Sequence record: MN850609.1
DNA: 64,000 nt
Reading direction: 5' to 3' (one strand)
From: Escherichia phage dhaeg
Part shown: positions 2,623 through 53,809 of the stretch, piece after piece
Layout: each line of letters begins with the position of its first letter
How positions within the stretch are numbered: position 1 is the first letter of the stretch
The notes under the pieces: generated by a model
Told to the model about the DNA's origin: nothing
What the model saw: the letters and a program-made list of their open reading frames with translations, nothing else
The model's database searches: none
Translations under genes and position numbers: made by a program

Positions 2623-3177
2623 ATGAGTTTATATGATAACCTTATATCAAATATTGATTGGTTTAAAAATAGTGGTCTTTCCCATGAAACCAATTCAGTT
2701 CTTTATAGAATTCGCCAAGACCTAGGCTATTCAAACGATTTCTTAAGCAGAACATCTAGCCGTGGCGATACTACCAAATTACCTTTTATTTTTGCTTTAG
2801 CTGAAGACCTTTCTTTTGAAGATGCTTTGGAAATTATTGACGTAAATCTGGCTATTCAACGAGTGGAATTCGCTGGACTACGTTATTCAGTATATTCTTT
2901 AAATGAGAGCAATGATTGCGTGCTTCTTAATATGGCAGACGATGATTACCATTTAGTATGCTATGTGGCTTTAGAAAATGGTGATGTATTTGGAATGGTC
3001 GACCGCCGCCCAACTTATACTGATATTAAAAATTATGATAAAGATGAGCTTCTTGATTTGGCGGCTGAGTACACATTAGAGAGTCGTAAACGGAAACGTA
3101 AGCTTAATCGTTTTATTGCTGAATGTCGTGAATATGCTAAAGGGGTTCAAAATGCGAACGTTATATCTGCCAAGTAA
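2623..3177 (+). CDS. Hypothetical protein
   Basis: SD GGAGGAGAGGAGAATATTATG. Confidence 0.65.
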   Translation: MSLYDNLISNIDWFKNSGLSHETNSVLYRIRQDLGYSNDFLSRTSSRGDTTKLPFIFALAEDLSFEDALEIIDVNLAIQRVEFAGLRYSVYSLNESNDCVLLNMADDDYHLVCYVALENGDVFGMVDRRPTYTDIKNYDKDELLDLAAEYTLESRKRKRKLNRFIAECREYAKGVQNANVISAK

Positions 3178-3511
3178 ACCAGAAAAATTTGTATACGCAG
3201 ACAAGATTGATAAAGACCTTATGCCTCCATTTGGGGCTCTGTCCATGTGCATCGTTGGAATTATAATGATGGTTGTTTGTGGAGATATGAATATCATCAG
3301 TGTTGGAGTCGCCTGGACGCTAGTAATTACAGCTCCTTTTATTACAGTCCTGTGTATGGTATTGATAAATGTGTGGCATCAAAATCATATGAATAAAGGA
3401 TATCGTGGGCGAGTTAAAGAGTGGGAACAAAAATGTGTTTCCCTACAAGAAGAGCACAAAATTAAATGTGCCGAAGAATTTATTAAGGAGGTTCGTAATG
3501 GAACGGCCTAA
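3152..3511 (+). CDS. Hypothetical membrane protein
   Basis: ATG 3152 after SD AGGGG; two long hydrophobic segments. Confidence 0.5.
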   Translation: MRTLYLPSKPEKFVYADKIDKDLMPPFGALSMCIVGIIMMVVCGDMNIISVGVAWTLVITAPFITVLCMVLINVWHQNHMNKGYRGRVKEWEQKCVSLQEEHKIKCAEEFIKEVRNGTA

Positions 3512-6160: not shown

Positions 6161-7120
6161 ATGATGCTAGTTATTGGTTCTCGTGCACTGCACCACGCTG
6201 GTCTGATTGAAAGTAAGTATATCGAAAATTCTGATTGGGATTTTATTGCCGACCAGGGGTCATGGAATAATTTTAAAGCACAGATGTTTGGCGCCCATGT
6301 ACACGTAGACAACCCTGACGTCCAGGCTTTTAAATGCATGCACAACGGTAAAGAAACCTATTTTGAAGCTTATATCGTCCGCGCCTTGACTAACGTACGT
6401 GAAATTACCGGCGAACTCCAAGATGAGGATTTCACCTCAAGCTACCGCCTTCTGAATTATGCTAAAACACATATTAAGAAAGATCGGATGACGGGTTTCT
6501 ATTGGGCCACGCCTGATATCTGTCTGGCCATCAAAATGAGCCATCGTTATTTGAAGAACAACCCTTTCTTTTTGAAGACGATGTCCCACATCAAATACCT
6601 TCGTAATAAAGGTGTAACCTTGAATGAAGAGCTCCAAGAAATCATGCTGCAACGTCAGAAAGAAACGTTGAGCTATTCTCATCCTAAATTAGATGTAAAC
6701 AAATCATCGTTCTTTAATGATACCATCTATACATTAGACCACGACTCTATTCATGAAGCTGTGGCATTAGCCGGACGCCCAGCGTATACCTTTTATATGA
6801 AAGATGGTTCTGAAGTCATGACCTCTCGTGAGAAGTTTGAAGCTTTGCCTGAAGCTATTAAACTGGCAGGGGTTTATGAAGAAGCATGTGTACTTGCTCT
6901 AGAGCGTTCGCAGGTTCCTAATGACTTTAATATCCCAGCAGCCACAAGTTTCTATATGGCTCTTGAGAAAGTGTGCACCTCAATCACTTCAGGTTGGTTC
7001 CGTGAGTATGCCTGGGAAAACTACCAAGCTGTAGTGAATATGTATAGGACCCTAGGTGAAAGTGACTACATCAACCGGTTTAAGCGTAATCAACATTTAA
7101 TTCGTCCTTTCGAAAAATAA
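6161..7120 (+). CDS. Hypothetical protein (319 aa), accessory region
   Basis: Long ORF, SD GAGGAAAATATTATG; no motif confidently recognised. Confidence 0.7.
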   Translation: MMLVIGSRALHHAGLIESKYIENSDWDFIADQGSWNNFKAQMFGAHVHVDNPDVQAFKCMHNGKETYFEAYIVRALTNVREITGELQDEDFTSSYRLLNYAKTHIKKDRMTGFYWATPDICLAIKMSHRYLKNNPFFLKTMSHIKYLRNKGVTLNEELQEIMLQRQKETLSYSHPKLDVNKSSFFNDTIYTLDHDSIHEAVALAGRPAYTFYMKDGSEVMTSREKFEALPEAIKLAGVYEEACVLALERSQVPNDFNIPAATSFYMALEKVCTSITSGWFREYAWENYQAVVNMYRTLGESDYINRFKRNQHLIRPFEK

Positions 7121-11832: not shown

Positions 11833-12107
11833 TTGAAGACATCAAAGGTTACAAGCCACATACCGACGATAAAATAGGTAAAGTGAATGCCATTAAAGAT
11901 GCTGAAGTTCGATTGGGCTTAATCTTTAAAGCATTAGAAGAAGAATATGTTGAAGCCTTTACATGCTCCGGTGTTGATAAAATGAGTGATGAAGAATTCG
12001 ACCTTACTCATGAACGCCTCGCCCAGATTCGTACGGCAATCGAACGCTTGAAAGAAGCATCCATGTGGGCCTGTCGTTCCGTTTTCCAACCGGAAGAGAA
12101 ATACTAA
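11829..12107 (+). CDS. Hypothetical small protein
   Basis: SD GAGGAAGTGAAATG. Confidence 0.55.
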   Translation: MIEDIKGYKPHTDDKIGKVNAIKDAEVRLGLIFKALEEEYVEAFTCSGVDKMSDEEFDLTHERLAQIRTAIERLKEASMWACRSVFQPEEKY

Positions 12108-12316
12108 TGAAAATCGAAAGTTTGCAAGAATTCCAACGTATCATCAGTGAAGCCTGTACTGGCTACCACAAATACTTGCTTGACGACCAAATGGCTTGTA
12201 TTGAAGAAGGTGAATTGCAGTACGCAGCCCAGCGCCTTGAACAGGTGAAAGAGTTTTATCCGGTGCTGGTAGAAATTTGTTCTGCTGTCGGAAAACTTAC
12301 CCCATTCCAAGAATAA
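12107..12316 (+). CDS. Hypothetical small protein
   Basis: TAATGA overlap start; SD GGAAGAGAAA. Confidence 0.5.
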   Translation: MKIESLQEFQRIISEACTGYHKYLLDDQMACIEEGELQYAAQRLEQVKEFYPVLVEICSAVGKLTPFQE

Positions 12317-22934: not shown

Positions 22935-23150
22935 ATGGAAATCTTAGGTTTTATTCTCCTTTACTTTGTGCTAGGATTTATGACGACCTTTATCATTCAT
23001 AAATCAGGTGATTGGAATCCGATCGAAATTGAATCAAGCTATGATGCAGTATTCATTACACTAGTATGGCCCCTACTTTGGGTTGTTTTGGTCATTATGA
23101 TGGTGTTTTGGCCTATCGCTAAATTCTATGAAAAATTATTTGGACTTTAA
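22935..23150 (+). CDS. Small membrane protein
   Basis: Two hydrophobic helices. Confidence 0.5.
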   Translation: MEILGFILLYFVLGFMTTFIIHKSGDWNPIEIESSYDAVFITLVWPLLWVVLVIMMVFWPIAKFYEKLFGL

Positions 23151-23151
23151 T

Positions 23152-24021
23152 ATGAACATTAAAACACGTAAAGAATACTCTATATACGACCATGACACAA
23201 CTCGTCGTATCGCTATTGACAGGTTAGCCGACTTTGGTCATATTTGTAATGGTAATTATACTTATGGCGTAGGTCGTAAAGGAACTTATATTTCTTCTTT
23301 GAACGATTATTGCCGTCGCCCAGCCCACCTGTTTGGTGCAACATTACGAGCTAATATCAAAGACCTCTTGGCTACTGCAGGACGTATTTCTACGGTTCCT
23401 GTTAATATCAAGAATATTAATTTTACGGCCCGTAACCTAGTCATTAATATTCTGTCTGACGGTATTCAAGTTCGTTTTCGCCCCACCTCAAAAGGTAATA
23501 AGGCCCTTCGTGAAGCATTCGAAACCTTATTCAGAGAAGCAATGACTCGTATTAAGGCCGTAGAATCATATAAAGTTACAACCGATGAATATGCTGATTG
23601 TTCCGGGCAAGCCGATGCAGTGTATATCAGAGTTAAACTAACTAGCGAATATCTTTTATCTTATGCCCCTTATCAACCCCAACAAAAGGACCCACAAATG
23701 GAACGTCGTATCTCTGCAGTATCATGTGACAGCGTAGGCCAGTATGCAGCCTATGACAAATTCAAAACCACCGCTGTGCCTAGTCCATTCAATTCCGAAC
23801 CGTATCATTGGAAAATTAAACCTGATAATTCTTTGGTTGTTACTAACCCTACGATGAAACCTATTGAGACCTATTATGCAGATAGCATTCAGGAATCAAT
23901 CCATCGTTTAAATGGTCAGATTGAAGATGAGAAAAAGAGCATTCAAGACGTTCTTAATCGCATCAAGAATATGGAAAACCAGCGTGACAAGCTTCGCGCG
24001 GCACTATTAGCTCTAAAATAA
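23152..24021 (+). CDS. Hypothetical protein
   Basis: ATG right after upstream stop (TAATATG); alternative start 23128. Confidence 0.6.
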   Translation: MNIKTRKEYSIYDHDTTRRIAIDRLADFGHICNGNYTYGVGRKGTYISSLNDYCRRPAHLFGATLRANIKDLLATAGRISTVPVNIKNINFTARNLVINILSDGIQVRFRPTSKGNKALREAFETLFREAMTRIKAVESYKVTTDEYADCSGQADAVYIRVKLTSEYLLSYAPYQPQQKDPQMERRISAVSCDSVGQYAAYDKFKTTAVPSPFNSEPYHWKIKPDNSLVVTNPTMKPIETYYADSIQESIHRLNGQIEDEKKSIQDVLNRIKNMENQRDKLRAALLALK

Positions 24022-25533: not shown

Positions 25534-25797
25534 ATGTTTAAAGTTTATGGTTACGATTCAAATATTCACCGTTGTGTTTTCTGTGATAATGCCAAACGTC
25601 TACTTGATGTTAAGAAACAACCTTACGAATTCATTAACGTGATGCCGGAAAAAGGTGTATTTGATGATAAGAAGATTGCTGAACTCTTGGCTGCTCTTGG
25701 TCGTGAATCTCAAGTAGGTTTGACCATGCCTCAGGTATTTGCTCCTGACGGAACTTCTATTGGTGGCTTTGACCAACTGCGAGCATATTTCAAATGA
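25534..25797 (+). CDS. nrdC: Thioredoxin/glutaredoxin (RNR reductant)
   Basis: CVFC redox motif in MFKVYGYDSNIHRCVFCDNAKRLL; 87 aa, matches T4 NrdC. Confidence 0.85.
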   Translation: MFKVYGYDSNIHRCVFCDNAKRLLDVKKQPYEFINVMPEKGVFDDKKIAELLAALGRESQVGLTMPQVFAPDGTSIGGFDQLRAYFK

Positions 25798-25961
25798 TTG
25801 AATTATTGTTGGGTATTTTGTATCTTATCATCGGTATTGGTTATGCTAAGACCCTAGCTAAATTAGATGATTTCGGTGCAGGTGACTTTTGTTGGTGGCT
25901 GACGTCTATGATTTGTTGGCCTTTATTTCTGGTTGGTGCTTCATTCTGGAACTTTAAATGA
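25794..25961 (+). CDS. Possible small membrane protein (55 aa)
   Basis: ATGA overlap with nrdC stop; hydrophobic. Confidence 0.4.
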   Translation: MIELLLGILYLIIGIGYAKTLAKLDDFGAGDFCWWLTSMICWPLFLVGASFWNFK

Positions 25962-26266
25962 TTGGATTAAATGAACAGACCATTTTTCTAGGTGATGGTA
26001 CTGAAGACGACCTAGAATATAAACTATACGAATATATGGTTTGGTTGGCTAAAGCAGAAGGTATTGATTTTGTTGTGGCTAACCCGTATGGCGAGAATAC
26101 TGTTGTAATCGGTGGCACTGCTTATGAAGTCCAATGGCAATACGTTGGGCTAGAATCTGAAGAATTTGAAGAAGATGAGCATGGTGATTGGCATCCGGTT
26201 GGCCCTTGGTATTGGGAAAACGGCGAGCCTGATTTTGAAGTAAGTAGTTGGTGGTGTGACCGTTAA
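25958..26266 (+). CDS. Acidic Trp-rich hypothetical protein
   Basis: ORF, ATGA overlap start. Confidence 0.55.
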   Translation: MIGLNEQTIFLGDGTEDDLEYKLYEYMVWLAKAEGIDFVVANPYGENTVVIGGTAYEVQWQYVGLESEEFEEDEHGDWHPVGPWYWENGEPDFEVSSWWCDR

Positions 26267-26382
26267 GCCATGGTATGTCGCTCGGTGGGAAACTACCGAG
26301 CCAGAGGAACCGGTTTACAACGATTCCGAAATAGAGTATAATGAACCTTCAAACAATGATTTAATCGATATGGAGTTTGGAT

Positions 26383-26556
26383 ATGAGTACCAAAATTGAA
26401 GTTGGCCGTCACAAAGGCCGTCTGATTGAGCATTCGCTTTACGAGTTGTCGGATTCGGGTTCTTTACCTGACCTAGAATCCGATTTGATTAAAGCTGCTG
26501 CTGACTATATCCATTGGCTTGAAGCTCAACTTCGCTTTGCTGATAAGGCGTTCTGA
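26383..26556 (+). CDS. Possible small protein (57 aa)
   Basis: SD GGAGTTTGG before ATG. Confidence 0.4.
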   Translation: MSTKIEVGRHKGRLIEHSLYELSDSGSLPDLESDLIKAAADYIHWLEAQLRFADKAF

Positions 26557-26632
26557 TGAAAACTTCTACTGTAATCTTGTGCTTATGGGGAATTTTTAAT
26601 TTGGGTATGCTTGTTTACTTGGTGGGTCAATT

Positions 26633-26809
26633 ATGAAAACTAAATTAGTCTATACTGAAAAGTTAAATGGTGACAAGGTCTGGAAACTTCTTATCAAAGG
26701 AAGTCCTACCGACCAGTTTATGGCCACCTGTATAGGGTTGTATACCCGTCCTACCAAAAAGATGATTCGTCAATTTAAACGGTTGCATCGCTCATTTTAT
26801 AATGTTTAA
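26633..26809 (+). CDS. Possible small basic protein (58 aa)
   Basis: ORF below track cutoff. Confidence 0.4.
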   Translation: MKTKLVYTEKLNGDKVWKLLIKGSPTDQFMATCIGLYTRPTKKMIRQFKRLHRSFYNV

Positions 26810-38780: not shown

Positions 38781-41492
38781 ATGCAAGAATTCTATTTGAC
38801 AGTCGAACAAATCGGTGATAATATTCTCGAACGTTACATCGATAAAAATGGTAACGAACGTAGTCGTGAAGTTCCTTACAAGCCTACAATGTTTATGCAT
38901 GCTAACCCAGAGCAAGCCGTAAAATATATTGACATCTACGGTAAGGGCTGTGTTAAGAAAGAATTCGATTCAATGCGCGATGCTTCTCAGTGGATGAAGC
39001 GCATGGACGATATGGGTCTCGAAGCCCTTGGTATGGATGACTATAAATTAGCCTATTTGTCTGATACCTATCGTAAAGAAATCAAGTATGATTCTTCTAA
39101 GATTCGTATTGCTAACTTCGACATCGAGGTAACATCTCCTGATGGATTCCCTGAACCTGCCCAGGCTAAACATCCTATCGATGCCATTACTCACTACGAC
39201 TCGATTGATGATAAATTCTATGTATTCGACCTTTTAGTTTCACCTTATGGTACGGTCGAAGAGTGGTCGATTAAAATCGCTGAGAAACTCCAAGACGAAG
39301 GTGGTGACGAAGTTCCACAGGAAATCATTGACAAAATCGTTTATCTTCCGTTTAATTCTGAAGAAGAAATGATGCTTGAGTATCTTAATTTCTGGCAACA
39401 AAAAACTCCTGTGATTTTGACTGGATGGAACGTTGAATCATTTGACGTGCCATACGTTTATAACCGTCTGAAAAATCTGTTTGGTGAGAACACTGCTAAG
39501 CGATTAAGCCCGCATCGTAAGACTCGTGTTAAAGTTATCGAGAACATGTACGGCGCTCGCGAAATTATTACACTGTTCGGTATCTCTGTTCTGGATTATA
39601 TCGACCTTTATAAAAAATTCAGCTTTACTAACCAGCCTTCTTATTCTCTGGATTACGTTTCTGAATATGAATTGAAAGTAGGTAAGTTGAAATATGATGG
39701 TCCTATCTCCAAGTTACGTGAGACGAACCACCAACGATATATTTCCTATAACATTATCGACGTATATCGTGTTGTGCAGATTGATATGAAACGCCAGTTC
39801 ATTCTTCTTAGTCTGGACATGGGTTACTATGCCAAGATGCAGATTCAGTCGGTGTTCAGTCCAATTAAGACTTGGGACGCTATTATCTTTAATAGCCTTA
39901 AAGAACAGGGTAAAGTTATTCCTCAGGCCAAATCGCATGCGGTTCAACCTTATCCAGGCGCTTTCGTTAAGGAACCTATTCCTAACGCGTACAAATATGT
40001 AATGAGTTTCGACCTTACATCTCTGTACCCGAGTATCATTCGACAAGTGAATATAAGCCCAGAGACCATCGCAGGGACATTCGCAAACGCGCCGATACAT
40101 GAATATATTGCCGGAACTGCTCCGCGTCCTAGCGACACCTACAGTTGCTCTCCTAACGGCATGATGTACTATAAAGACCGTGATGGTGTGATTCCTACAG
40201 AAATCACGAAGGTGTTCTTACAACGTAAAGAACATAAAGGTTATATGCTTGCAGCTCAACGTAATGGTGAGTTAATTAAAGAAGCATTAGAAAATCCTAA
40301 TCTGTCTGTTGATAGTCCATTGGATGTTGATTATCGTTTCGACTTCTCTGACGAAGTCAAAGCCCAGATTAAAAAATTGTCAGCCTCTTCTTTAAAAGAA
40401 ATGTTGTTCAAAGCCGAACGTACTGAAGTCGCAGGTATGACTGCTCAGATTAACCGTAAATTGCTTATCAACTCCCTTTATGGTGCACTTGGTAACGTAT
40501 GGTTCCGTTACTATGACCTCAGGAACGCAACTGCAATAACATTGTTTGGTCAAATGGCCCTCCAATGGATTGAACGTAAGGTTAACGAATATCTGAATGG
40601 TGTGTGCAAGACTGAAAACCAGAAGTTCGTGCTCTATGGTGATACCGACTCCATTTATGTTAAGGCCGATGCAATCATCAATAAAGTAGGCGAAGACAAA
40701 TTCCGTGATACCAACCACTGGGTCGACTTCTTAGATAAATTTGCACGTGAACGTATGGAACCAGCTATTGATGCAGGCTTCCGTGAGATGTGTGAATACA
40801 TGAACAATAAACAGCACTTGATGTTCATGGACCGAGAAGCTATCGCTGGTCCTCCACTTGGTTCTAAAGGTCTTGGTGGATTCTGGACAGGCAAGAAACG
40901 TTATGCACTGAACGTTTGGGACATGGAAGGTACTCGCTATGCCGAACCACACTTGAAAATCATGGGTCTCGAAACCCAGAAATCAAGTACACCTAAAGCG
41001 GTTCAGAAAGCTCTGAAAGAATGTATCCGACGTATGCTTCAAGAAGGCGAGGCCTCTTTGCAAGAATATTTCAAACAGTTTAATAAGGAATTTAACGAAC
41101 TAGACTATGTAAGCATTGCTGCAGTATCCAGTGCTAACAACATCGAGAAATATAATGAAGGCGGTTTCCCTGGTTCTAAATGTCCGTACCACATCAAAGG
41201 TTGCTTAGCTTACATGCGTGCTTCTGCCGGTGATTTGACTATGCCTCGTATCGTTGATGGTGAAAAGGTATATGTACTGCCACTTAAAGAAGGCAACCCG
41301 TTCGGTGAAGCTTGTATGGCATGGCCGTCAGGTATTGAACTTCCGATTCAGATTCGTGACCAAGTCCTCCGTTGGATGGACTACAATGTACTGTTCCAAA
41401 AGACCTTTATCAAACCTCTGACCGGTTTTACTGAGTCTGCTAAAATCGACTACGAGAAAAAAGCAACATTATTTGACATGTTTGACTTTTAA
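38781..41492 (+). CDS. 43: DNA polymerase gp43 (family B, 3'-5' exonuclease + polymerase)
   Basis: Colinear with T4 gp43 from MQEFY...; Exo motifs (FDIE, YNIIDV), pol motifs (DLTSLYPSI, YGDTDS); SD AAAGGAAATG. Confidence 0.95.
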   Translation: MQEFYLTVEQIGDNILERYIDKNGNERSREVPYKPTMFMHANPEQAVKYIDIYGKGCVKKEFDSMRDASQWMKRMDDMGLEALGMDDYKLAYLSDTYRKEIKYDSSKIRIANFDIEVTSPDGFPEPAQAKHPIDAITHYDSIDDKFYVFDLLVSPYGTVEEWSIKIAEKLQDEGGDEVPQEIIDKIVYLPFNSEEEMMLEYLNFWQQKTPVILTGWNVESFDVPYVYNRLKNLFGENTAKRLSPHRKTRVKVIENMYGAREIITLFGISVLDYIDLYKKFSFTNQPSYSLDYVSEYELKVGKLKYDGPISKLRETNHQRYISYNIIDVYRVVQIDMKRQFILLSLDMGYYAKMQIQSVFSPIKTWDAIIFNSLKEQGKVIPQAKSHAVQPYPGAFVKEPIPNAYKYVMSFDLTSLYPSIIRQVNISPETIAGTFANAPIHEYIAGTAPRPSDTYSCSPNGMMYYKDRDGVIPTEITKVFLQRKEHKGYMLAAQRNGELIKEALENPNLSVDSPLDVDYRFDFSDEVKAQIKKLSASSLKEMLFKAERTEVAGMTAQINRKLLINSLYGALGNVWFRYYDLRNATAITLFGQMALQWIERKVNEYLNGVCKTENQKFVLYGDTDSIYVKADAIINKVGEDKFRDTNHWVDFLDKFARERMEPAIDAGFREMCEYMNNKQHLMFMDREAIAGPPLGSKGLGGFWTGKKRYALNVWDMEGTRYAEPHLKIMGLETQKSSTPKAVQKALKECIRRMLQEGEASLQEYFKQFNKEFNELDYVSIAAVSSANNIEKYNEGGFPGSKCPYHIKGCLAYMRASAGDLTMPRIVDGEKVYVLPLKEGNPFGEACMAWPSGIELPIQIRDQVLRWMDYNVLFQKTFIKPLTGFTESAKIDYEKKATLFDMFDF

Positions 41493-41494
41493 GT

Positions 41495-41536
41495 GTTTAC
41501 ATACCACATGGAACGTGGTAGTATCCTTCCTATCAA
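41495..41536 (+). promoter_or_regulatory. Early promoter cassette (GTTTAC-N18-TGgTAGTATCCTTCCTATCAAC)
   Basis: GTTTAC 41495-41500, -10 TAGTAT 41519-41524. Confidence 0.5.
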
Positions 41537-41554
41537 CTACATGAGGAAATTATA

Positions 41555-41791
41555 ATGGAAGCTTTAATCGTTAGTGCTGGTGTTTTAGGATTCGGTTCTC
41601 TGGTTATTATGTTCATTGGTTACTTTTTACCATGGATTCTGGCTCTTCTGCGAGGCACTCGTAGCAATGTCGGAATCTTCTTCCTTAATCTCCTGTTAGG
41701 ATGGACGATGATTGGTTGGGTAGTGGCTTTAATCTGGGCTATCGTCGCTGAACGTAAATCAAACGCACAAATCATTATCGTTAAACAATGA
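41555..41791 (+). CDS. imm: Superinfection immunity protein (Imm family membrane protein)
   Basis: Two TM helices; motif LPWILALLRG...NLLLGWTMIGWVVALIWA typical of Imm superinfection-immunity family; position after gene 43. Confidence 0.7.
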   Translation: MEALIVSAGVLGFGSLVIMFIGYFLPWILALLRGTRSNVGIFFLNLLLGWTMIGWVVALIWAIVAERKSNAQIIIVKQ

Positions 41792-41922
41792 AGATAATTA
41801 TTTTATTTCTTATAATGGTTGCCTTTACCATTTATTGGGCAGTGGCAATTCCTCCAATGATTCCAACATTAATCATGGGATGGATTATTCTTATAGCACA
41901 AATTAAGTATAACTGTTTTAAT
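41788..41922 (+). CDS. Possible small hydrophobic peptide (44 aa)
   Basis: ATGA overlap with imm stop. Confidence 0.3.
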
Positions 41923-41932
41923 TGAGGATATT

Positions 41933-42433
41933 ATGAAAAAGTTAATTATCGCAATGAGTATGCTCCTATCAGGTTGCGCGGTCCAATACGGCGATGCAGT
42001 TTCGGCTGATGAAGTTGGTAAAGCTCGTATTGCAGCTGAACAGAAACAATTCGACGGCGAAATGAAATTCCGTGCTGGTTCTGGACTTGTGTATACCCGA
42101 GCTAATAATCAATGTGGTAATAACTGTGCAAAATATGCTCAAAGGGAAATCGAATTCCAACGTGAACAAGAGTCTAAGCGTGAAGCGGTACTAGCCAAAC
42201 ACCAGGCAGAAATGAAGCGCCAAGATGATTTGTACAAAAAGCAGAAACTGTACGCGATGTGTGTAAACCATATCAATCTACAGATTTCCGTCCACGAGGC
42301 CCGTTATTACGAAATGCTCGAAACCGAGAGCTTCGATAAGGCGCGCGATTATAAGAAACAAATCAACAAGCTTAAGACCAAAGTGCCTGCTGCAGTAGAA
42401 CAGTGCATGGAATACGGTAAAGATAAGATTTAA
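41933..42433 (+). CDS. Lipoprotein
   Basis: Lipobox LLSGC; SD GAGGATATTATG. Confidence 0.6.
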   Translation: MKKLIIAMSMLLSGCAVQYGDAVSADEVGKARIAAEQKQFDGEMKFRAGSGLVYTRANNQCGNNCAKYAQREIEFQREQESKREAVLAKHQAEMKRQDDLYKKQKLYAMCVNHINLQISVHEARYYEMLETESFDKARDYKKQINKLKTKVPAAVEQCMEYGKDKI

Positions 42434-42493
42434 GCAATAGAAATTTATTAAAAATAGTGTATAATGTATCTACATTCACTTGAGGAACAGATA

Positions 42494-44167
42494 ATGAAAA
42501 AGGTTGTTATTTTAGGCGCAGGTCTTGGCTCACGGTTGTATCCAATTACTAACGAAATCCCGAAGGTATTGGTTAACTACAAACAACATACTGTATTAAA
42601 ACATTTGTATGATTTGTATAGTAACCAATCAGATGAAATTATTCTGGTTATCCACAGCAAATTTAACGACCTCGTTAAAGGCTATATTAAATCCATTAAC
42701 ATGATTACTGGCGATAAGCCTAAATTCACTATTCGTAACGTTGATGTTGCTAATGGTTCGGCCCATGCTATCGATTGCATTGCCGAAGATATCATTGGCC
42801 ATAATGTCTTGTTTAACTGGTGTGACATCATTCCTATCGGTCATAAAGTTGAATGGGGTAACGACTACTGTTATACCTATGGAACCGACTGTCGTTTTAC
42901 ATTCGAAGAACCATATTTACGTGAAATTGGTACTGGTGGTGGCGTAGTTGGTTTGTATCAGGTGGCTAACTGGACAGGTTTCGACCGTTCTAATTATGGT
43001 GAAGACCTTGCTGATAACCTGGATTCAATGGTCTATTTGACCGAACGTAAACTAGACTTTGTAGTTGATGTCGGTGACAAATTGAAACTGGCTAAGGCCC
43101 ATGAAGAATCTGAAATCAATCGTGAATTTAATAAATTAGAATTCACTGAGAATCTGGCCATTAAAGTACCAACTAACGAATTAGGTAAAGAAATTCAATC
43201 TAAAGAAATCAATTGGTATAATTCTATTGATTCTGAATTTGTTCCTAGTATTGTGGACTTTTCTCCAGGCGAATTCATTAAAATGGAACGTATCTTTGGT
43301 CGTACCATGGCAGATGCCTACCGCTTTATGTCCAAAGAAACTAAAGTCCTCATGGTTTATAAGGTCATTAGTGCATTACGTTCATTTGGTGGAACTATCG
43401 ATAATCCGTCCGATGAACAATGGTATTCTGATGTTAAGAAAGAAGTATTGGACAAGGTCCTTATTCGTAATGCTTCTATTGCTGGATTGATTGAAGGCTT
43501 TGCTCCACAAGGCATTACCCACGTTAACGATTTCAAAGTAGGCGACCCTGAAAAACTTCTCCGCCATGCACTAGAAATTCTGTCTGAACATAAAGAACCA
43601 TACCAACTTATTCATGGCGACCCGCACTACAGTAATATTATGCTGTCGGACGAAGGTGATATTAAAATCATCGACCCACGCGGTTATTTCGGTAATAGTT
43701 CTAAAGGCCCTGCGATTTATGATGAAGCTAAGGTGCTTTATTCTATCGATGGCTATGATAAATTTAACTCAGACCCTCTATGGGGTGGATTAACTCGTAA
43801 CGGAACTCGTGTATTCGTTGATATCGAAAAGGTTATGCCTTTAGACGATATCCCTATGTGCACATTTAAGCACAAGCTCTGGATTGCCGTTATTTGGATG
43901 GCTCTGGCAGGTTACTTTAAGAATAACCCTCTGAAAGCTCTGGGTGCTTATTATAATGGTTTGTATCAACTGAGTGTGCTGCTGAAGCGGCATCCTCGTA
44001 AGCGTAAGCTTATTACGGGTGAATTTGTCGATGAAGTTCGTGACCCTATTACGGCTCAAATTATTACTCGTTGTCCTGATAAGTGGGTTTTGCTTGACCA
44101 GGAAACTGGTGTAAAATATAAACCTACAGGTTCTACTGAACTCCACAAACAATGGAAGAAAATTTAA
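42494..44167 (+). CDS. Bifunctional sugar-1-phosphate nucleotidyltransferase / APH-fold (anomeric sugar or choline-type) kinase
   Basis: N-term MKKVVILGAGLGSRLYPITNEIPKVL (GxGxR..PxT..PK NTase signature); C-term HGDPHYSNIM ... IIDPRGYFG kinase catalytic/ Mg loops; ATG after SD GAGGAA. Confidence 0.65.
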   Translation: MKKVVILGAGLGSRLYPITNEIPKVLVNYKQHTVLKHLYDLYSNQSDEIILVIHSKFNDLVKGYIKSINMITGDKPKFTIRNVDVANGSAHAIDCIAEDIIGHNVLFNWCDIIPIGHKVEWGNDYCYTYGTDCRFTFEEPYLREIGTGGGVVGLYQVANWTGFDRSNYGEDLADNLDSMVYLTERKLDFVVDVGDKLKLAKAHEESEINREFNKLEFTENLAIKVPTNELGKEIQSKEINWYNSIDSEFVPSIVDFSPGEFIKMERIFGRTMADAYRFMSKETKVLMVYKVISALRSFGGTIDNPSDEQWYSDVKKEVLDKVLIRNASIAGLIEGFAPQGITHVNDFKVGDPEKLLRHALEILSEHKEPYQLIHGDPHYSNIMLSDEGDIKIIDPRGYFGNSSKGPAIYDEAKVLYSIDGYDKFNSDPLWGGLTRNGTRVFVDIEKVMPLDDIPMCTFKHKLWIAVIWMALAGYFKNNPLKALGAYYNGLYQLSVLLKRHPRKRKLITGEFVDEVRDPITAQIITRCPDKWVLLDQETGVKYKPTGSTELHKQWKKI

Positions 44168-44550
44168 TGTCGCATCGAGTAGAAAATAAGCCACATTTAT
44201 GTTTTGATATCGATAACACAATCACGATTTGGAACCATGACCGTGATTATGAGAACTTTAAACCGGACACCGAAATGGTGTCCATGATTAATAAGCTTTA
44301 TGATGAAGGGTACGAGATTACATTGTTCACTGCCCGTGGCATGACTTCATGTGGCCCAGGTCGAATCTTGGTTGAAGTAGTTCCTGCATTGGTTAAGAAT
44401 CTTGAAAAAATTGGATTGAAATATCACAATTTGCTTACACACAAGCCGAGTTATACTTTTATCATCGATGACCGAGCAATCCGTCCTGACCACTTTAAAG
44501 AATTGGTTCGTGAAGGAACTCTTGATAGTTATAAGGCCTATCATCCATGA
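44167..44550 (+). CDS. HAD-superfamily phosphatase-like protein
   Basis: Motif I CFDIDNTIT (DxDxT); 127 aa. Confidence 0.55.
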   Translation: MSHRVENKPHLCFDIDNTITIWNHDRDYENFKPDTEMVSMINKLYDEGYEITLFTARGMTSCGPGRILVEVVPALVKNLEKIGLKYHNLLTHKPSYTFIIDDRAIRPDHFKELVREGTLDSYKAYHP

Positions 44551-45083
44551 ATCCAAAAATCATTGTTATAGACGGCCCGGATAATTCCGGGAAGTCCACT
44601 TTAATTAAAAATCTGTTATCCAATAAGAAATACCGCCTTATTGATTTTCCTAAAAAGATTAATGGCAAGTGTATTTCATTAGGAACTGATAACGATAAGG
44701 CTTTAGTTGAAACTCTGTATAAGTTTTTAGACCCTAATTTCGTTTATATCCTTGACCGTGGTTATCCAAGTAATATTGTTTACTCAGGATTCCTTCGTGG
44801 TGAAATGGACCCTTATGTAGAACTGGAAGATTGGAAAGGGTTTAAATCTGAATTTAACGTTATCGAGGTTATTTTAACTCGCAACCCATTAGACGAAGAC
44901 TTCGAAGATGACCTTATTAAATTAACCAAAGATGAGTTCAACCTAACTATCCAGCAATACGAAACATGTTTTGAAAACGTGTTTAAAATCTTAAATCATG
45001 ACGGTCATAATAATTTGCTTAATGTTGATATGGTAGAATTAAAACGTCTGAACGAATATATTGAAAATAAGGTGAATAAATGA
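44547..45083 (+). CDS. P-loop nucleotide kinase (thymidylate/dNMP kinase-like)
   Basis: IVIDGPDNSGKSTL Walker A and LDRGYPS; 178 aa. Confidence 0.55.
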   Translation: MNPKIIVIDGPDNSGKSTLIKNLLSNKKYRLIDFPKKINGKCISLGTDNDKALVETLYKFLDPNFVYILDRGYPSNIVYSGFLRGEMDPYVELEDWKGFKSEFNVIEVILTRNPLDEDFEDDLIKLTKDEFNLTIQQYETCFENVFKILNHDGHNNLLNVDMVELKRLNEYIENKVNK

Positions 45084-45778
45084 AACACATTACCGCTGTT
45101 AGTTTTGAAAACGCATTTAAACAAATGAACGAAGAAATCCTGGAAGCTCCACAGTTTGCAGTTGATTCTCGTATCGGACGCTGTTATGAAATTGGTTCTG
45201 CTTCAGTAGAAGTACTGGATGCCAGCACCTATAAATTCACCGACCCACGTATCAATCGTATCAGTTATGAATATGCCGAATCCTTTTGGAAATTTATGAT
45301 TTCTGGTGGTACTGACGCTGCCGAAGCATTTAAGGAATACCCTAATGTTGCTAAGTTCATTGATAAGCCGAAAAGTGACGTATTGCCTGCAAACTTCAAC
45401 ACTTTCTATGGACCTCGAATTGTGGCCCAGCTCCCAGCCCTACTTAAAGAGCTTAAAGAAAAGGCTAACTCGCGAAGAGTTGTGTTCCAGATTCTCCAAG
45501 AACAAGACCAAGCCCTCCTTGATTCTGACGAATCCTTAGAATACCCGTGCACCGATTCAGTAACGTATTATATTCGTGATGGTCGTTTGTATGCACATAC
45601 CCATATGCGTTCACAAAACTGCGCTGTTGTTATGCAGCTGGATTTCTATCTGCAGGGTAAACTGATGGCATTTATTGCCGAACAGTGTGGTGTCGGTTTA
45701 GGTACGTATTCCCACACCATGGTAAGTGCACACGTGTTTGAACGTGATTTTGACTACGTCCGAGGTTTCCTGAAATGA
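45080..45778 (+). CDS. Thymidylate-synthase-family pyrimidine hydroxymethylase (diverged gp42-like)
   Basis: YPCTDSVTYYIRDGRLYAHTHMRSQN vs T4 gp42 FMCTNTVQYLIRDKKINAVVNMRSND (catalytic Cys context), position of gene 42. Confidence 0.6.
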   Translation: MKHITAVSFENAFKQMNEEILEAPQFAVDSRIGRCYEIGSASVEVLDASTYKFTDPRINRISYEYAESFWKFMISGGTDAAEAFKEYPNVAKFIDKPKSDVLPANFNTFYGPRIVAQLPALLKELKEKANSRRVVFQILQEQDQALLDSDESLEYPCTDSVTYYIRDGRLYAHTHMRSQNCAVVMQLDFYLQGKLMAFIAEQCGVGLGTYSHTMVSAHVFERDFDYVRGFLK

Positions 45779-46668
45779 GTTTGTTTATCGTTCCTATTTT
45801 CAGTATGCGTAGTTACGAAACAGGTGAATATGCCGTCCTTAAGGACGGTAATTTTCAACTCCATTTAAATCGTGCTCGTCCAGGTGATTATCTGGCTTAT
45901 CCTAGAAATTCGAGCGATATCAAAGAATGCATTGAATTATTCCCAGAACTGAATTTCGTACCACTTTGGTATAAAGAAAATGCTTATGAAACCCGTAAAC
46001 ATTTCTGGTCCGAAAATGAGTTTGTAGTCGATTCACTAATCGAATACTATGATTGCTCAGGACTGGTAACCGATATCACCGGTTATGATGGTGCTCATAC
46101 TGTACAATTCAACTTTAATATCACAATGGACCCTGAAGTTCCTCGTTATTATATCGACGAGTTCATTGATATTGATGTGGCTTCAGTTGAACGTTCACTT
46201 TATACTACAGTCCTGAATCAATGCCAGAAAGACGTCCTGGTGTCACGAGGTGCATCCTCTGATAAGATTTTTGTAGACCAAAAGGTAATTAATCCTGCAG
46301 TAATTGAGCGTTACTCTGATGGTCTAGCGCCTATTAAAATTGATGGTATTTTCCATCCATTCCGTATTTCGGATAAGTGCTATCAATTCGAAAGAGTTGT
46401 AGACCAAGCTGCCGCTGAAGGTGCTCGTCTTTATATCACCGACCCGAATGATTCATTTAAGCGTGAAGACTATCGTCCTGATGTAGAGATTGTTAAATTC
46501 AAACCGAGTAAGGTTGAATATTATCAGATTCTGAAATCAAGACCACATATCATTTATCATGAGAACCCAGGTTTAGTATTCCATCCTGGTCTGGCTGAAT
46601 TCATTTATTTCGGTGCCCATATTCATTCTGAGTACGAAATGCCACGTTATGAGGACGTAGTATGCTAG
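45775..46668 (+). CDS. Unknown 297-aa protein in the beta-gt slot; candidate DNA sugar transferase
   Basis: Position only (between hydroxymethylase and uvsX where T4 has beta-gt); no similarity to T4 beta-gt seen. Confidence 0.35.
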   Translation: MSLFIVPIFSMRSYETGEYAVLKDGNFQLHLNRARPGDYLAYPRNSSDIKECIELFPELNFVPLWYKENAYETRKHFWSENEFVVDSLIEYYDCSGLVTDITGYDGAHTVQFNFNITMDPEVPRYYIDEFIDIDVASVERSLYTTVLNQCQKDVLVSRGASSDKIFVDQKVINPAVIERYSDGLAPIKIDGIFHPFRISDKCYQFERVVDQAAAEGARLYITDPNDSFKREDYRPDVEIVKFKPSKVEYYQILKSRPHIIYHENPGLVFHPGLAEFIYFGAHIHSEYEMPRYEDVVC

Positions 46669-46793
46669 GTCCTCTATTGCTTTTTATAGGTTTGTTATTA
46701 TTCTCTTTCGGAGCCCTTCTAGTATTATGCTGGCTCGAGAAACGAGAAGTTCGGAAGATAGTCGATAAGGCTATCAACCGAGGAATTAAGTAA
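46662..46793 (+). CDS. Possible small membrane peptide (43 aa)
   Basis: ATG overlapping upstream stop; hydrophobic. Confidence 0.3.
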   Translation: MLGPLLLFIGLLLFSFGALLVLCWLEKREVRKIVDKAINRGIK

Positions 46794-46818
46794 TGCTATA
46801 GCTGTGAAGTGATATAAT
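46794..46818 (+). promoter_or_regulatory. Candidate middle promoter upstream of uvsX (TGCTA box + TGaTATAAT)
   Basis: ATGCTAT 46793-46799, TATAAT 46813-46818. Confidence 0.3.
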
Positions 46819-46871
46819 TACCCTATCTTAAAAACGTGAGAAAAATATAATGGTGCCTATGGAAAAATATA

Positions 46872-48044
46872 ATGTCCGATTTAAAATCCCGTTTGATTAA
46901 AGCTTCTACTTCTAAAATGACTGCCGATCTGACCAAATCTAAATTGTTTAATGGTCGTGACGAAGTTCCTACTCGTATTCCTATGCTTAATATTGCATTG
47001 GGTGGTGCGTTGAATGCAGGCTTACAATCAGGTTTGACAATCTTTGCTGCACCGTCTAAACACTTTAAAACGTTGTTTGGATTAACTATGGTTGCGGCAT
47101 ATATGAAGAAATATCCAGACGCAATTTGCTTGTTCTATGACTCTGAGTTCGGTGCTTCAGAATCTTATTTCCGTTCAATGGGTGTTGACCTGGAACGTGT
47201 GGTTCATACGCCAATCCAGTCAGTCGAACAACTGAAGGTTGACATGACCAACCAATTAGAAGAAATTACTCGTGGCGAAAAGGTTATTATCTTTATCGAC
47301 TCCATCGGTAATACTGCTTCTAAGAAAGAAACCGAAGATGCTTTGAACGAGAAAGTTGTAGGTGATATGACTCGTGCTAAGTCTCTGAAATCTCTGTTCC
47401 GTATCGTAACACCTTATTTGACTATCAAGGATATTCCTTGCGTAGCAATTAACCATACGGCTATGGAAATTGGTGGAATGTATCCTAAAGAGATTATGGG
47501 TGGTGGTACTGGTATTCTGTACTCTGCTTCTACCGTATTCTTTATCTCTAAACGTCAGGTTAAAGATGGTACCGAGCTCACTGGTTATGACTTCACCCTT
47601 AAGGCCGAAAAATCTCGTACTGTTAAAGAGAAATCAACGTTCCCAATTACTGTGAACTTTGAAGGTGGTATCGACCCGTTTAGTGGTCTGCTCGAAATGG
47701 CTACTGATATTGGCTTTGTCGTGAAACCTAAAGCTGGTTGGTATAATCGTGCATTCCTTGACGAAACTACAGGTGAAATGGTTCAAGAAGAAAAATCATG
47801 GCGTGCTAAAGCTACCGATTGTGTCGAGTTCTGGGGACCGCTGTTTAAACATGCCCCGTTCCGTGAAGCAATCGAGAATAAGTATAAGCTTGGTGCAATT
47901 AATTCTATTAAAGAAGTCGATGATGCCGTGAACGACCTTATTAACTCTCGTGTCTCTAAGAACGTTGCAGTTAAATTGAGTGGTGACGCTCAAAGTGCTG
48001 CTGATATCGAAAACGATTTAGAAGAGATGGATTTAGATGACTGA
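46872..48044 (+). CDS. uvsX: Recombinase UvsX (RecA-like)
   Basis: Colinear with T4 UvsX as recalled (MSDLKSRLIKASTSK...IPMLNIALGG..., Walker A GPSKHFKT). Confidence 0.9.
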   Translation: MSDLKSRLIKASTSKMTADLTKSKLFNGRDEVPTRIPMLNIALGGALNAGLQSGLTIFAAPSKHFKTLFGLTMVAAYMKKYPDAICLFYDSEFGASESYFRSMGVDLERVVHTPIQSVEQLKVDMTNQLEEITRGEKVIIFIDSIGNTASKKETEDALNEKVVGDMTRAKSLKSLFRIVTPYLTIKDIPCVAINHTAMEIGGMYPKEIMGGGTGILYSASTVFFISKRQVKDGTELTGYDFTLKAEKSRTVKEKSTFPITVNFEGGIDPFSGLLEMATDIGFVVKPKAGWYNRAFLDETTGEMVQEEKSWRAKATDCVEFWGPLFKHAPFREAIENKYKLGAINSIKEVDDAVNDLINSRVSKNVAVKLSGDAQSAADIENDLEEMDLDD

Positions 48045-53287: not shown

Positions 53288-53809
53288 ATGGCTCATTTTA
53301 ATGAATGTTCTCAACTTATTGCTGGTGCTGATAAAGCTGAAGAAGCTTATTTTAATGCTCTGATTCACGAAGATAAAGACCCTCTGCAAGTTATGCTTGA
53401 TATGCAGAAATCATTACAGGTTCGTCTGGCCACTGAAAAATCGGAATTCAACACCAATCCTGATGAACTAGCTACAGCAGGTCAAGTTGTTGATTGGCTT
53501 CGCAACCAGAAAGATTATATTGATGATGAATTCCGTGAACTGCTGACTTCTCTTGGCGGTATGAGTAATGGCGAAAAAGCTGCCTCTAGTGTGTGGAAGC
53601 CTTGGAAAGCCCAACATGCTGAATTCCGTAATCGTCGTATTGACGAGTTGTCTCCTGAAGACCAGCTCGAAATCAAATTCGAGATGATTGATATTCTGCA
53701 CTTTGTTCTTAATATGTTCCAGGGTCTTGGACTGACCGCTGAAGAAATCTTTAAACTGTATTATCTGAAAAATGCCGAGAACTTTGCTCGTCAAGACCGA
53801 GGTTATTAA
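53288..53809 (+). CDS. 56: dCTPase/dUTPase gp56 (MazG-like dNTP pyrophosphatase)
   Basis: 173 aa; similarity to T4 gp56 as recalled (MAHFNEC..., C-terminal YYLKN.ENFARQDRGY). Confidence 0.75.
   Translation: MAHFNECSQLIAGADKAEEAYFNALIHEDKDPLQVMLDMQKSLQVRLATEKSEFNTNPDELATAGQVVDWLRNQKDYIDDEFRELLTSLGGMSNGEKAASSVWKPWKAQHAEFRNRRIDELSPEDQLEIKFEMIDILHFVLNMFQGLGLTAEEIFKLYYLKNAENFARQDRGY

Follow-up and report, generated by a model that had tools for sequence, protein, structure and literature searches.

The 64,000-nucleotide stretch of Escherichia phage dhaeg analysed here (sequence record MN850609.1; 'the window' refers to this whole stretch) contains, between imm and uvsX, a module of five genes. 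This module is very probably the Dhakavirus copy of the known arabinosyl-5-hydroxycytosine DNA pathway, which would replace the cytosine of the virion DNA. We base the assignment on the fact that for all five proteins the best RB69 homologs lie in the gp45–gp53 cluster of that phage. An earlier interpretation (the sequence-only reading) had noticed that five genes take the place held in T4 by gene 42 and the beta-glucosyltransferase gene (b-gt), had regarded them as one candidate DNA hypermodification module and had left undecided whether the system is that described for some T-even relatives. The coordinates were confirmed, with the addition of two small open reading frames (ORFs) after imm. 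The five homologs of the RB69 cluster bear out the single module, and the homology of all five proteins argues for the same system as in RB69. It is not a new kind of system: it has been published for RB69, HY126 and DLP3 (2025–2026), with Dhakaviruses named as carriers.

The module locus is 100% identical to that of Escherichia phage dhabil (MN850621, Dhakavirus) and 93–98.6% identical to those of JS98, JS10, CLB_P2 and other Dhakaviruses, with 51 records covering at least 80% of it. The five genes (ORF1 to ORF5) are encoded on the forward strand. As all five proteins have strong PHROGs matches (E-values from 1e-40 to 1e-268), they represent genuine conserved genes and not chance ORFs. Neighbouring genes overlap by one base (TAATG, once) or by four bases (ATGA, three times), an arrangement that looks like a translationally coupled operon.

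Thymidylate synthase homolog and the modified base

ORF4 (45080–45778, forward strand, 232 residues) is a predicted 5-hydroxy-dCMP synthase of the thymidylate synthase superfamily. It matches the Pfam family Thymidylat_synt above the cut-off (E = 3.6e-13) and is 80% identical to RB69 gp48. Among solved structures, it matches PDB entries 9iqu, 9iqc and 9ir2 with E = 2e-125, compared with E = 1.5e-4 for 1b49. The three entries, together with 9iqw (see below), fall in the accession run of 9iqz, which is labelled as a glycosyltransferase of phage HY126. The similarity to T4 gp42 is remote (24.5% identity, E = 9e-8). The description of ORF4 as a thymidylate synthase family enzyme resembling gp42 thus holds with respect to the superfamily, while the likeness to gp42 is only a distant one.

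The active site of ORF4 was aligned with those of Escherichia coli ThyA, T4 gp42, RB69 gp48 and td, the ThyA-like protein that the phage itself encodes. In ThyA numbering, ORF4 has C146 together with L143E, N177D, D169N, W80A and G173V, which is the signature of RB69 gp48. D169, W80 and G173, which are kept in gp42-type dCMP hydroxymethylases and retained in T4 gp42, are replaced in ORF4 by N, A and V. The D169N exchange is diagnostic of 5-hydroxy-dCMP (5hodCMP) synthases (PMC13326640). RB69 gp48 and DLP3 gp80 convert dCMP to 5hodCMP in vivo, with the oxygen derived from 18O2 and with flavin bound (PMC13326640). Because of the 80% identity and the identical active-site signature to the experimentally characterized gp48, we infer that ORF4 hydroxylates dCMP, being a 5-hydroxy-dCMP synthase rather than a hydroxymethylase.

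The sequence-only reading had proposed 5-hydroxymethylcytosine (hmC) as the base, made by a gp42-like hydroxymethylase, with the sugar attached to the hydroxymethyl group as arabinosyl-hmC or another glycosyl-hmC. Membership of ORF4 in the thymidylate synthase superfamily agrees with this, as do the dCMP-specifying N177D exchange and the acidic residue at L143, both of which are common to ORF4 and T4 gp42. The original report on RB69 also described arabosyl-hmC (PMC6024577). That structure has since been revised by nuclear magnetic resonance, mass spectrometry and 18O2 labelling to ether-linked 5-hydroxycytosine (PMC13326640; PMC13390438). In the DNA of RB69 and DLP3, 5-hydroxycytosine carries one or several arabinose units through an ether bond at C5, and arabinosyl-hmC is not present (PMC13326640); a second paper confirms the correction for RB69 and reports mono- and di-arabinosyl-dC from a Mosigvirus (PMC13390438). 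Given this revision, the three exchanges typical of proven hydroxylases and the much closer relationship of ORF4 to gp48 than to gp42, hmC as the base is very improbable, and this part of the earlier proposal had to be abandoned.

A gp56-type enzyme had also been assigned to the pathway, and it is indeed present in the window. The 173-residue dCTPase/dUTPase is encoded at 53288–53809 on the forward strand (Pfam dUTPase_2, E = 2.6e-6), and its dhabil counterpart is annotated as dCTP pyrophosphatase.

Activation and transfer of the sugar

ORF1 (42494–44167, forward strand, 557 residues) is an AfhE-like fusion protein. Pfam analysis assigned it an NTP_transferase domain (33.9 bits, cut-off 21.2) and an APH domain (26.0 bits, cut-off 23.2). 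It matches phrog_4098 with E = 4e-268 and is 41–45% identical to RB69 gp53 plus gp52 over the full length. The nucleotidyltransferase motifs (G-x-G-L-x-x-R-L and PK) and the kinase motifs (HGDxxxSN and IDPRGYFG) are kept across the AfhE family. The motifs quoted in the sequence-only reading (GAGLGSRLYPIT..PK, HGDPHYSN and IDPRGYFG for ORF1, DIDNT for ORF2) are all present in the translations. The amino-terminal domain is a predicted UDP-arabinofuranose pyrophosphorylase, that is, a sugar-1-phosphate nucleotidyltransferase, and the carboxy-terminal domain, with its APH/choline-kinase fold, a predicted arabinose-5-phosphate 1-kinase.

ORF2 (44167–44550, forward strand, 127 residues) is an AfhF-like HAD phosphatase in which the DxDxT motif has the form DIDNT. 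It is 61–62% identical to RB69 gp51 and matches PDB entry 9iqw (E = 3.6e-54) and the NCBIfam family TIGR01689, capsule-biosynthesis phosphatase (E = 5e-15); there was no match in Pfam. From its homology, ORF2 is predicted to convert arabinose-1,5-bisphosphate to arabinose-1-phosphate.

[quoted passage not shown] The order given there leads from arabinose-5-phosphate via the 1-kinase to arabinose-1,5-bisphosphate, via the HAD phosphatase to arabinose-1-phosphate and finally to UDP-arabinofuranose. The idea that ORF1 and ORF2 make an activated sugar other than glucose is supported, with arabinose indicated by homology. The sequence of steps suggested at that time (phosphatase, kinase, nucleotidyltransferase, starting from a free sugar) does not agree with the published order, in which arabinose-5-phosphate enters and the kinase acts before the phosphatase.

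A role outside DNA modification was also considered, either with ORF1 as a LicA/LicC-type choline kinase and phosphocholine cytidylyltransferase or with the module serving decoration of the host capsule or lipopolysaccharide. A search of solved structures by sequence yielded nothing useful for ORF1. The best match of its amino-terminal domain, to LicC (1jyk), is weak and local (E = 1e-3, residues 3–53), and the APH matches of the carboxy-terminal domain are generic. The choline-kinase fold of that domain and the match of ORF2 to a capsule-biosynthesis family point in the same direction. These similarities are weak and at the level of the fold, whereas ORF1 is orthologous to AfhE and RB69 gp52:53, for which kinase activity on arabinose-5-phosphate along with UDP-arabinose pyrophosphorylase activity is reported (PMC13326640). 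Moreover, in the gene 42/b-gt slot, translation of ORF1 appears to be coupled to that of a dCMP-modifying enzyme and a GT-B transferase. We therefore regard a role unrelated to DNA as very unlikely.

Three distant homologs of ORF1 (P0184, P0198 and P0214; 31–32% identity) are single chains of 922–946 residues in which HAD, SIS (arabinose-5-phosphate isomerase-like) and nucleotidyltransferase(-kinase) domains are fused. Such fusions tie the activities into one pathway ('Rosetta-stone' link).

ORF5 (45775–46668, forward strand, 297 residues) is 65–70% identical to RB69 gp47 plus gp46. Pfam and NCBIfam searches gave no match and a sequence search of solved structures gave no useful one, so that the fold had to be predicted. 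The protein was modelled confidently as a GT-B (GT4-like) glycosyltransferase of the RB69 gp46:47/DLP3 gp79 family. On the basis of this model and of its homology, ORF5 is the predicted arabinosyltransferase 1, which would attach the base-proximal arabinose. The transferase-1 family is acidic: in the window phage, RB69, CHI14 and Maestro, the net charge is −9 to −18 and the pI 4.6–5.5. For the T4 enzymes, net charges are +6 (beta-glucosyltransferase) and −5 (alpha-glucosyltransferase). Such acidity is odd for an enzyme presumed to act on DNA and may be a weak hint at transfer to a mononucleotide.

ORF3 (44547–45083, forward strand, 178 residues) is a nucleotide kinase with a thymidylate-kinase fold, the P-loop GPDNSGKST and 38% identity to RB69 gp45. 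Pfam revealed only sub-threshold matches to P-loop kinases, and the sequence search of solved structures nothing useful. ORF3 adjoins the thymidylate synthase homolog, as expected for a cluster in which the kinase lies beside the thymidylate synthase homolog and the transferase. The folds anticipated by the sequence-only reading were largely recovered: NTP_transferase plus APH domains for ORF1 (by Pfam), a HAD phosphatase, a thymidylate-kinase-like fold, the thymidylate synthase family and a GT-B model for the 297-residue protein.

In the proposed pathway, the gp56 dCTPase would convert dCTP to dCMP and so deplete dCTP. ORF4 would hydroxylate dCMP at C5 with flavin and O2, and the resulting 5hodCMP would be raised to the triphosphate by a gp1-type dNMP kinase, and possibly also by ORF3, together with the host NDP kinase. 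In dhabil, the gene for a gp1-type kinase lies just beyond the window. The phage polymerase would then incorporate the triphosphate. To our knowledge, the host has no UDP-arabinose, so the window phage must make its own sugar. As it lacks an isomerase of its own, D-arabinose-5-phosphate would be drawn from the host pool; E. coli always makes this compound via KdsD/GutQ for Kdo synthesis. By homology to HY126 AfhE and AfhF, the kinase domain of ORF1 would phosphorylate C1 of arabinose-5-phosphate, ORF2 would strip the 5-phosphate and the nucleotidyltransferase domain of ORF1 would produce UDP-arabinofuranose. ORF5 would place the arabinose on the 5-hydroxyl group. With arabinosylated 5-hydroxycytosine, the DNA would be shielded from nucleases of restriction and CRISPR systems.

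Reduced gene content and the weighing of alternatives

Several genes of the RB69 cluster are missing. The search for them was run with tblastn on the window, supplemented by the part of the dhabil genome that lies outside it. RB69 gp55 (arabinose-5-phosphate isomerase) gave no match at E < 1, and no homolog was found for RB69 gp50 (U32-like), gp49 and gp3 (second arabinosyltransferase). T4 b-gt likewise had no match at E < 1, and T4 a-gt had chance-level matches only (E = 0.07–0.13). This conforms to the earlier observation that the 297-residue protein has no likeness to the T4 beta-glucosyltransferase, and extends it, as neither glucosyltransferase is encoded elsewhere in the sequence searched. 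In dhabil, there is no gene in the a-gt slot (gene 47 to a-gt.2), and the RB69 gp3 slot, from rIIA.1 to gene 39, contains just two small ORFs.

The absence of the isomerase and of gp3 appears to extend to other Dhakaviruses. Among the isomerase homologs listed (40 of 276 phage records), there are Mosigvirus, Winklervirus, Tegunavirus, Kanagawavirus, Acinetobacter phages and others, and no Dhakavirus. The gp3 homologs in the phage collection show either at least 95% identity (Mosigvirus) or less than 60% (Acinetobacter phages and one Tegunavirus); again no Dhakavirus was found. Nor do the sequenced loci of the nearest two metagenomic relatives, contigs with the gene order pol-AfhE-HAD-kinase-U32-TS-GT-uvsX (TS, thymidylate synthase homolog; GT, glycosyltransferase), hold an isomerase (SIS-domain) gene. 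Judged from gene content, the Dhakavirus cluster represents an isomerase-less branch in its most reduced form. As arabinose-5-phosphate can come from the host, we treat the phage isomerase as an accessory feature of the system. The extra GT4 transferases define poly-arabinosylation and not the system itself.

The window phage has a single recognisable transferase. In Shewanella phage Thanatos, a single arabinosyltransferase and mono-pentosylated cytosine were described (PMC12838424), and Thanatos DNA is regarded as mono-arabinosylated (PMC13326640). For these two reasons we predict, by analogy, mono-arabinosyl-5-hydroxycytosine for the window phage, and not the di- and tri-arabinosyl forms of RB69 and DLP3. 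Large ORFs of the window that have no annotation were considered as a hidden second transferase, and no transferase signal was seen in them. A 297-residue ORF at 23128–24021 was rejected on account of its T4 homologs, and a 319-residue ORF for its spread across unrelated phage families. Homologs of the latter, a protein of unknown function (6161–7120, forward strand; phrog_2141), occur in 733 phage records, including T4-like, Vequintavirus-like, Aeromonas, Vibrio, Gordonia, Streptomyces and Ralstonia phages, which is an uncommonly broad distribution for a protein without annotation.

In the relatives of the cluster, a gene for a U32-peptidase-like protein adjoins the thymidylate synthase homolog; in the RB69 record, this is gp50 (L001:6493–7662, reverse strand). 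One metagenomic relative (L013:10826–11992 and L013:12224–12610) carries a chorismate mutase gene between its U32-like and thymidylate synthase genes. RB69 gp50 and the U32-like protein of this relative match UbiU weakly (E = 1e-3). In the U32 family, RlhA, TrhP and UbiU/V carry out hydroxylations that depend on prephenate and not on O2; prephenate is the product of chorismate mutase. By analogy, the phage U32 protein may provide an anaerobic route to 5-hydroxycytosine. Since the U32-like gene is absent, the window phage would rely on O2 alone. In PMC13326640, gp50 is called a 'sugar or heterocycle reductase', without mention of U32 or prephenate.

Several points weigh against the assignment to the arabinosyl-5-hydroxycytosine pathway, or at least against parts of it. 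We found no chemical analysis of Dhakavirus DNA in the searchable literature, and the genome-wide absences rely on dhabil for the part outside the window. ORF1 is the most diverged component of the module, evenly over both domains, and in a neighbour-joining tree its clade is basal to all other T4-like homologs. A second, unrecognisable transferase may exist, since ORF5 itself has no Pfam match. Purified transferases were inactive on DNA containing 5-hydroxycytosine, and the first transfer, that by the gp46:47 family, was not reconstituted (PMC13326640). Finally, the gp1 homolog already phosphorylates 5hodCMP (PMC13326640), which leaves the thymidylate-kinase-like kinase of the cluster without an evident task. 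Because of the diverged, basal AfhE homolog and the missing phage isomerase, the sugar is less certain than the base.

The first of two alternatives that follow from these points keeps the base and assumes that another pentose phosphate is activated, such as ribose-5-phosphate or a xylose derivative, so that the pentose of the DNA would not be D-arabinofuranose. An isomerase gene is lacking in the window phage, whereas RB69, CHI14, Maestro, DLP3 and many more possess one. The basal clade of ORF1 is completed by two metagenomic proteins (80% and 72% identity), the loci of which are also devoid of a SIS-domain gene. ORF1 is 45–46% identical to its RB69, CHI14 and Maestro counterparts, compared with 56% between RB69 and Maestro across subfamilies. 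Positions directly beside the catalytic motifs also differ (GLGSRL versus GLATRL, TNEIPK versus THHIPK and HGDPHYSN versus HGDPNFSN). In addition, in vitro work on a related phage enzyme led to its description as UDP-xylose pyrophosphorylase (PMC12838424). However, the isomerase is dispensable when E. coli supplies arabinose-5-phosphate, and the divergence of ORF1 is uniform, with the catalytic residues retained. The HAD phosphatase (61–70% identity) and the transferase (64–67%) are conserved to the degree seen for orthologs handling the same sugar, and Thanatos, as mentioned, is regarded as mono-arabinosylated (PMC13326640). A different pentose is therefore rather improbable.

The second alternative concerns the stage at which the sugar is attached. 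The first arabinose might be added to 5hodCMP before replication, with ORF3 as a dedicated arabinosyl-5-hydroxy-dCMP kinase. The genes for kinase, thymidylate synthase homolog and transferase 1 are neighbours in the window as well as in RB69, DLP3 and the hexosylating Rhizobium phage RL38J1, although their order is permuted. This reading would also give a task to the second kinase, which has none if the gp1 homolog handles 5hodCMP, and would agree with the inactivity of the purified transferases on DNA; the authors of that study cannot say whether the first arabinose transfer occurs on DNA or on the mononucleotide (PMC13326640). The transferase-1 family is, moreover, more acidic (−9 to −18) than the DNA glucosyltransferases of T4 (+6 and −5). 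We consider this alternative to have a small chance of being correct. If true, it would be without precedent as a pre-replicative pathway of DNA glycosylation.

Both alternatives can be combined in a functionally distinct branch of the 5-hydroxycytosine systems, in which another pentose is activated and/or 5hodCMP is glycosylated before replication with ORF3 as dedicated kinase. That the module represents such a branch is possible but unlikely, and the arabinosyl-5-hydroxycytosine pathway in its published form is our preferred interpretation.

Gene neighbourhood, distribution and comparison with known systems

The module is flanked by imm (41555–41791; Pfam Imm_superinfect, E = 5e-18) and uvsX (46872–48044). 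Between imm and ORF1 there are two further ORFs: a 36-residue homolog of RB69 gp54 (41815–41922) and a 166-residue lipoprotein-like ORF (41933–42433, forward strand) with a lipoprotein-type signal (MKKLIIAMSMLLSGC). The latter has no homolog in the RB69 region and no meaningful Pfam match, and may be another superinfection-exclusion or envelope protein. A candidate promoter (TAGAAA-16 nt-TATAAT), followed by the ribosome-binding site GAGGA, is located at 42438–42465 on the forward strand, 29 nt upstream of the first gene. With 10 of 12 matches, it is the top scorer of the promoter scan. Yet overall the scan did not exceed chance expectation: there were 20 promoter-like sites compared with 17.8 in shuffled sequence, and two terminator-like sites compared with 4.1. 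T4 MotA boxes and late promoters were not found in the region 41400–47000. Because of the gene overlaps, we take the module to be a single transcription unit; the promoter and terminator scan was not informative in this respect.

Beyond the module locus, the window is 94–99.6% identical to dhabil (MN850621), mostly 98–99.6%, with small indels in the BLAST map. Gaps occur, for example, around 3160–3484, 12107–12315 and 25797–26633. This pattern suggests a mosaic or recombinant close relative. In GenBank/RefSeq, genes of the module are labelled in Dhakaviruses as 'phosphoheptose isomerase', 'capsule biosynthesis protein', 'thymidylate synthase', 'dCMP hydroxymethylase', 'capsid and scaffold protein' and 'RNA polymerase binding protein'. 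In view of the 2025–2026 work, all of these labels are misleading, and the locus is better annotated as a 5-hydroxy-dCMP synthase pathway.

In 2010, the question arose why JS98 and RB69 have homologs of genes 42 and 56 and no glucosyltransferases (PMC2993671). The arabinosyl-5-hydroxycytosine cluster answers this question. The gene set would allow coliphages of the JS98/dhabil type, which are used in phage-therapy cocktails, to keep cytosine out of the reach of restriction enzymes and CRISPR nucleases. The five-gene composition predicts mono-arabosylation, dependence on arabinose-5-phosphate from the host and strict dependence on O2. It also makes the cluster a convenient minimal set for reconstitution.

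The closest of the known systems is that of the Mosigvirus RB69, in which gp45–gp55 and gp3 specify mono- and di-arabinosyl-5-hydroxycytosine DNA (PMC13326640). The window shares with it the homologs of gp45, gp46:47, gp48, gp51 and gp52:53, the slot from DNA polymerase/imm to uvsX and the hydroxylase signature. The thymidylate synthase homolog, HAD phosphatase and transferase resemble their RB69 and CHI14 counterparts as closely as these resemble each other. The gene order differs: it is isomerase-AfhE-HAD-U32-TS-GT-kinase in RB69 and AfhE-HAD-kinase-TS-GT in the window. The kinase gene follows the transferase gene in RB69, CHI14 and Maestro, whereas it precedes the thymidylate synthase homolog in the window. 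A further difference is that RB69 has gp55, gp50, gp49 and gp3, all four of which are missing in the window. In the RB69 record, both the transferase (ORF046/047, L001:4598–5498) and the fusion enzyme (ORF052/053, L001:8095–9781) are split. In the window, CHI14 and Maestro, they are intact single ORFs of matching length, which supports the published view that the splits in RB69 are sequencing errors.

For the Afh system of HY126 (He et al., Nat Chem Biol 2026), ORF4 and ORF2 match solved structures (E = 2e-125 and 3.6e-54, respectively), and we adopted the AfhE/AfhF scheme as summarised in PMC13326640. Thanatos contains a single gp46:47-type transferase along with a member of the AfhE family (P0137, TH1_060) that is 43% identical to ORF1. 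It differs from the window phage in its distant host and lineage, and its AfhE homolog belongs to the main clade and not to the Dhakavirus clade. Acinetobacter phage DLP3 (gp76–83) and Maestro share the five core genes, the Maestro homologs being 36–71% identical. They carry in addition an isomerase (DLP3 gp83) and two extra GT4 transferases (DLP3 gp76 and gp77), which build up the di- and tri-arabinosyl chain. Syntenic clusters have been reported in eleven further groups, Dhakaviruses included (PMC13326640).

T4 itself, with gene 42 and the alpha- and beta-glucosyltransferase genes, uses the same slot, with the order uvsX-segA-b-gt-42-imm. The logic is also the same: a dCTPase, a thymidylate synthase superfamily enzyme acting on dCMP, a kinase and GT-B transferases that use a UDP-sugar. 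The window has no sequence similarity to the T4 beta- and alpha-glucosyltransferases, and the chemistry at C5 differs as well, the group introduced being CH2OH from methylene-tetrahydrofolate in T4 and, as predicted, OH from O2 and flavin in the window phage.

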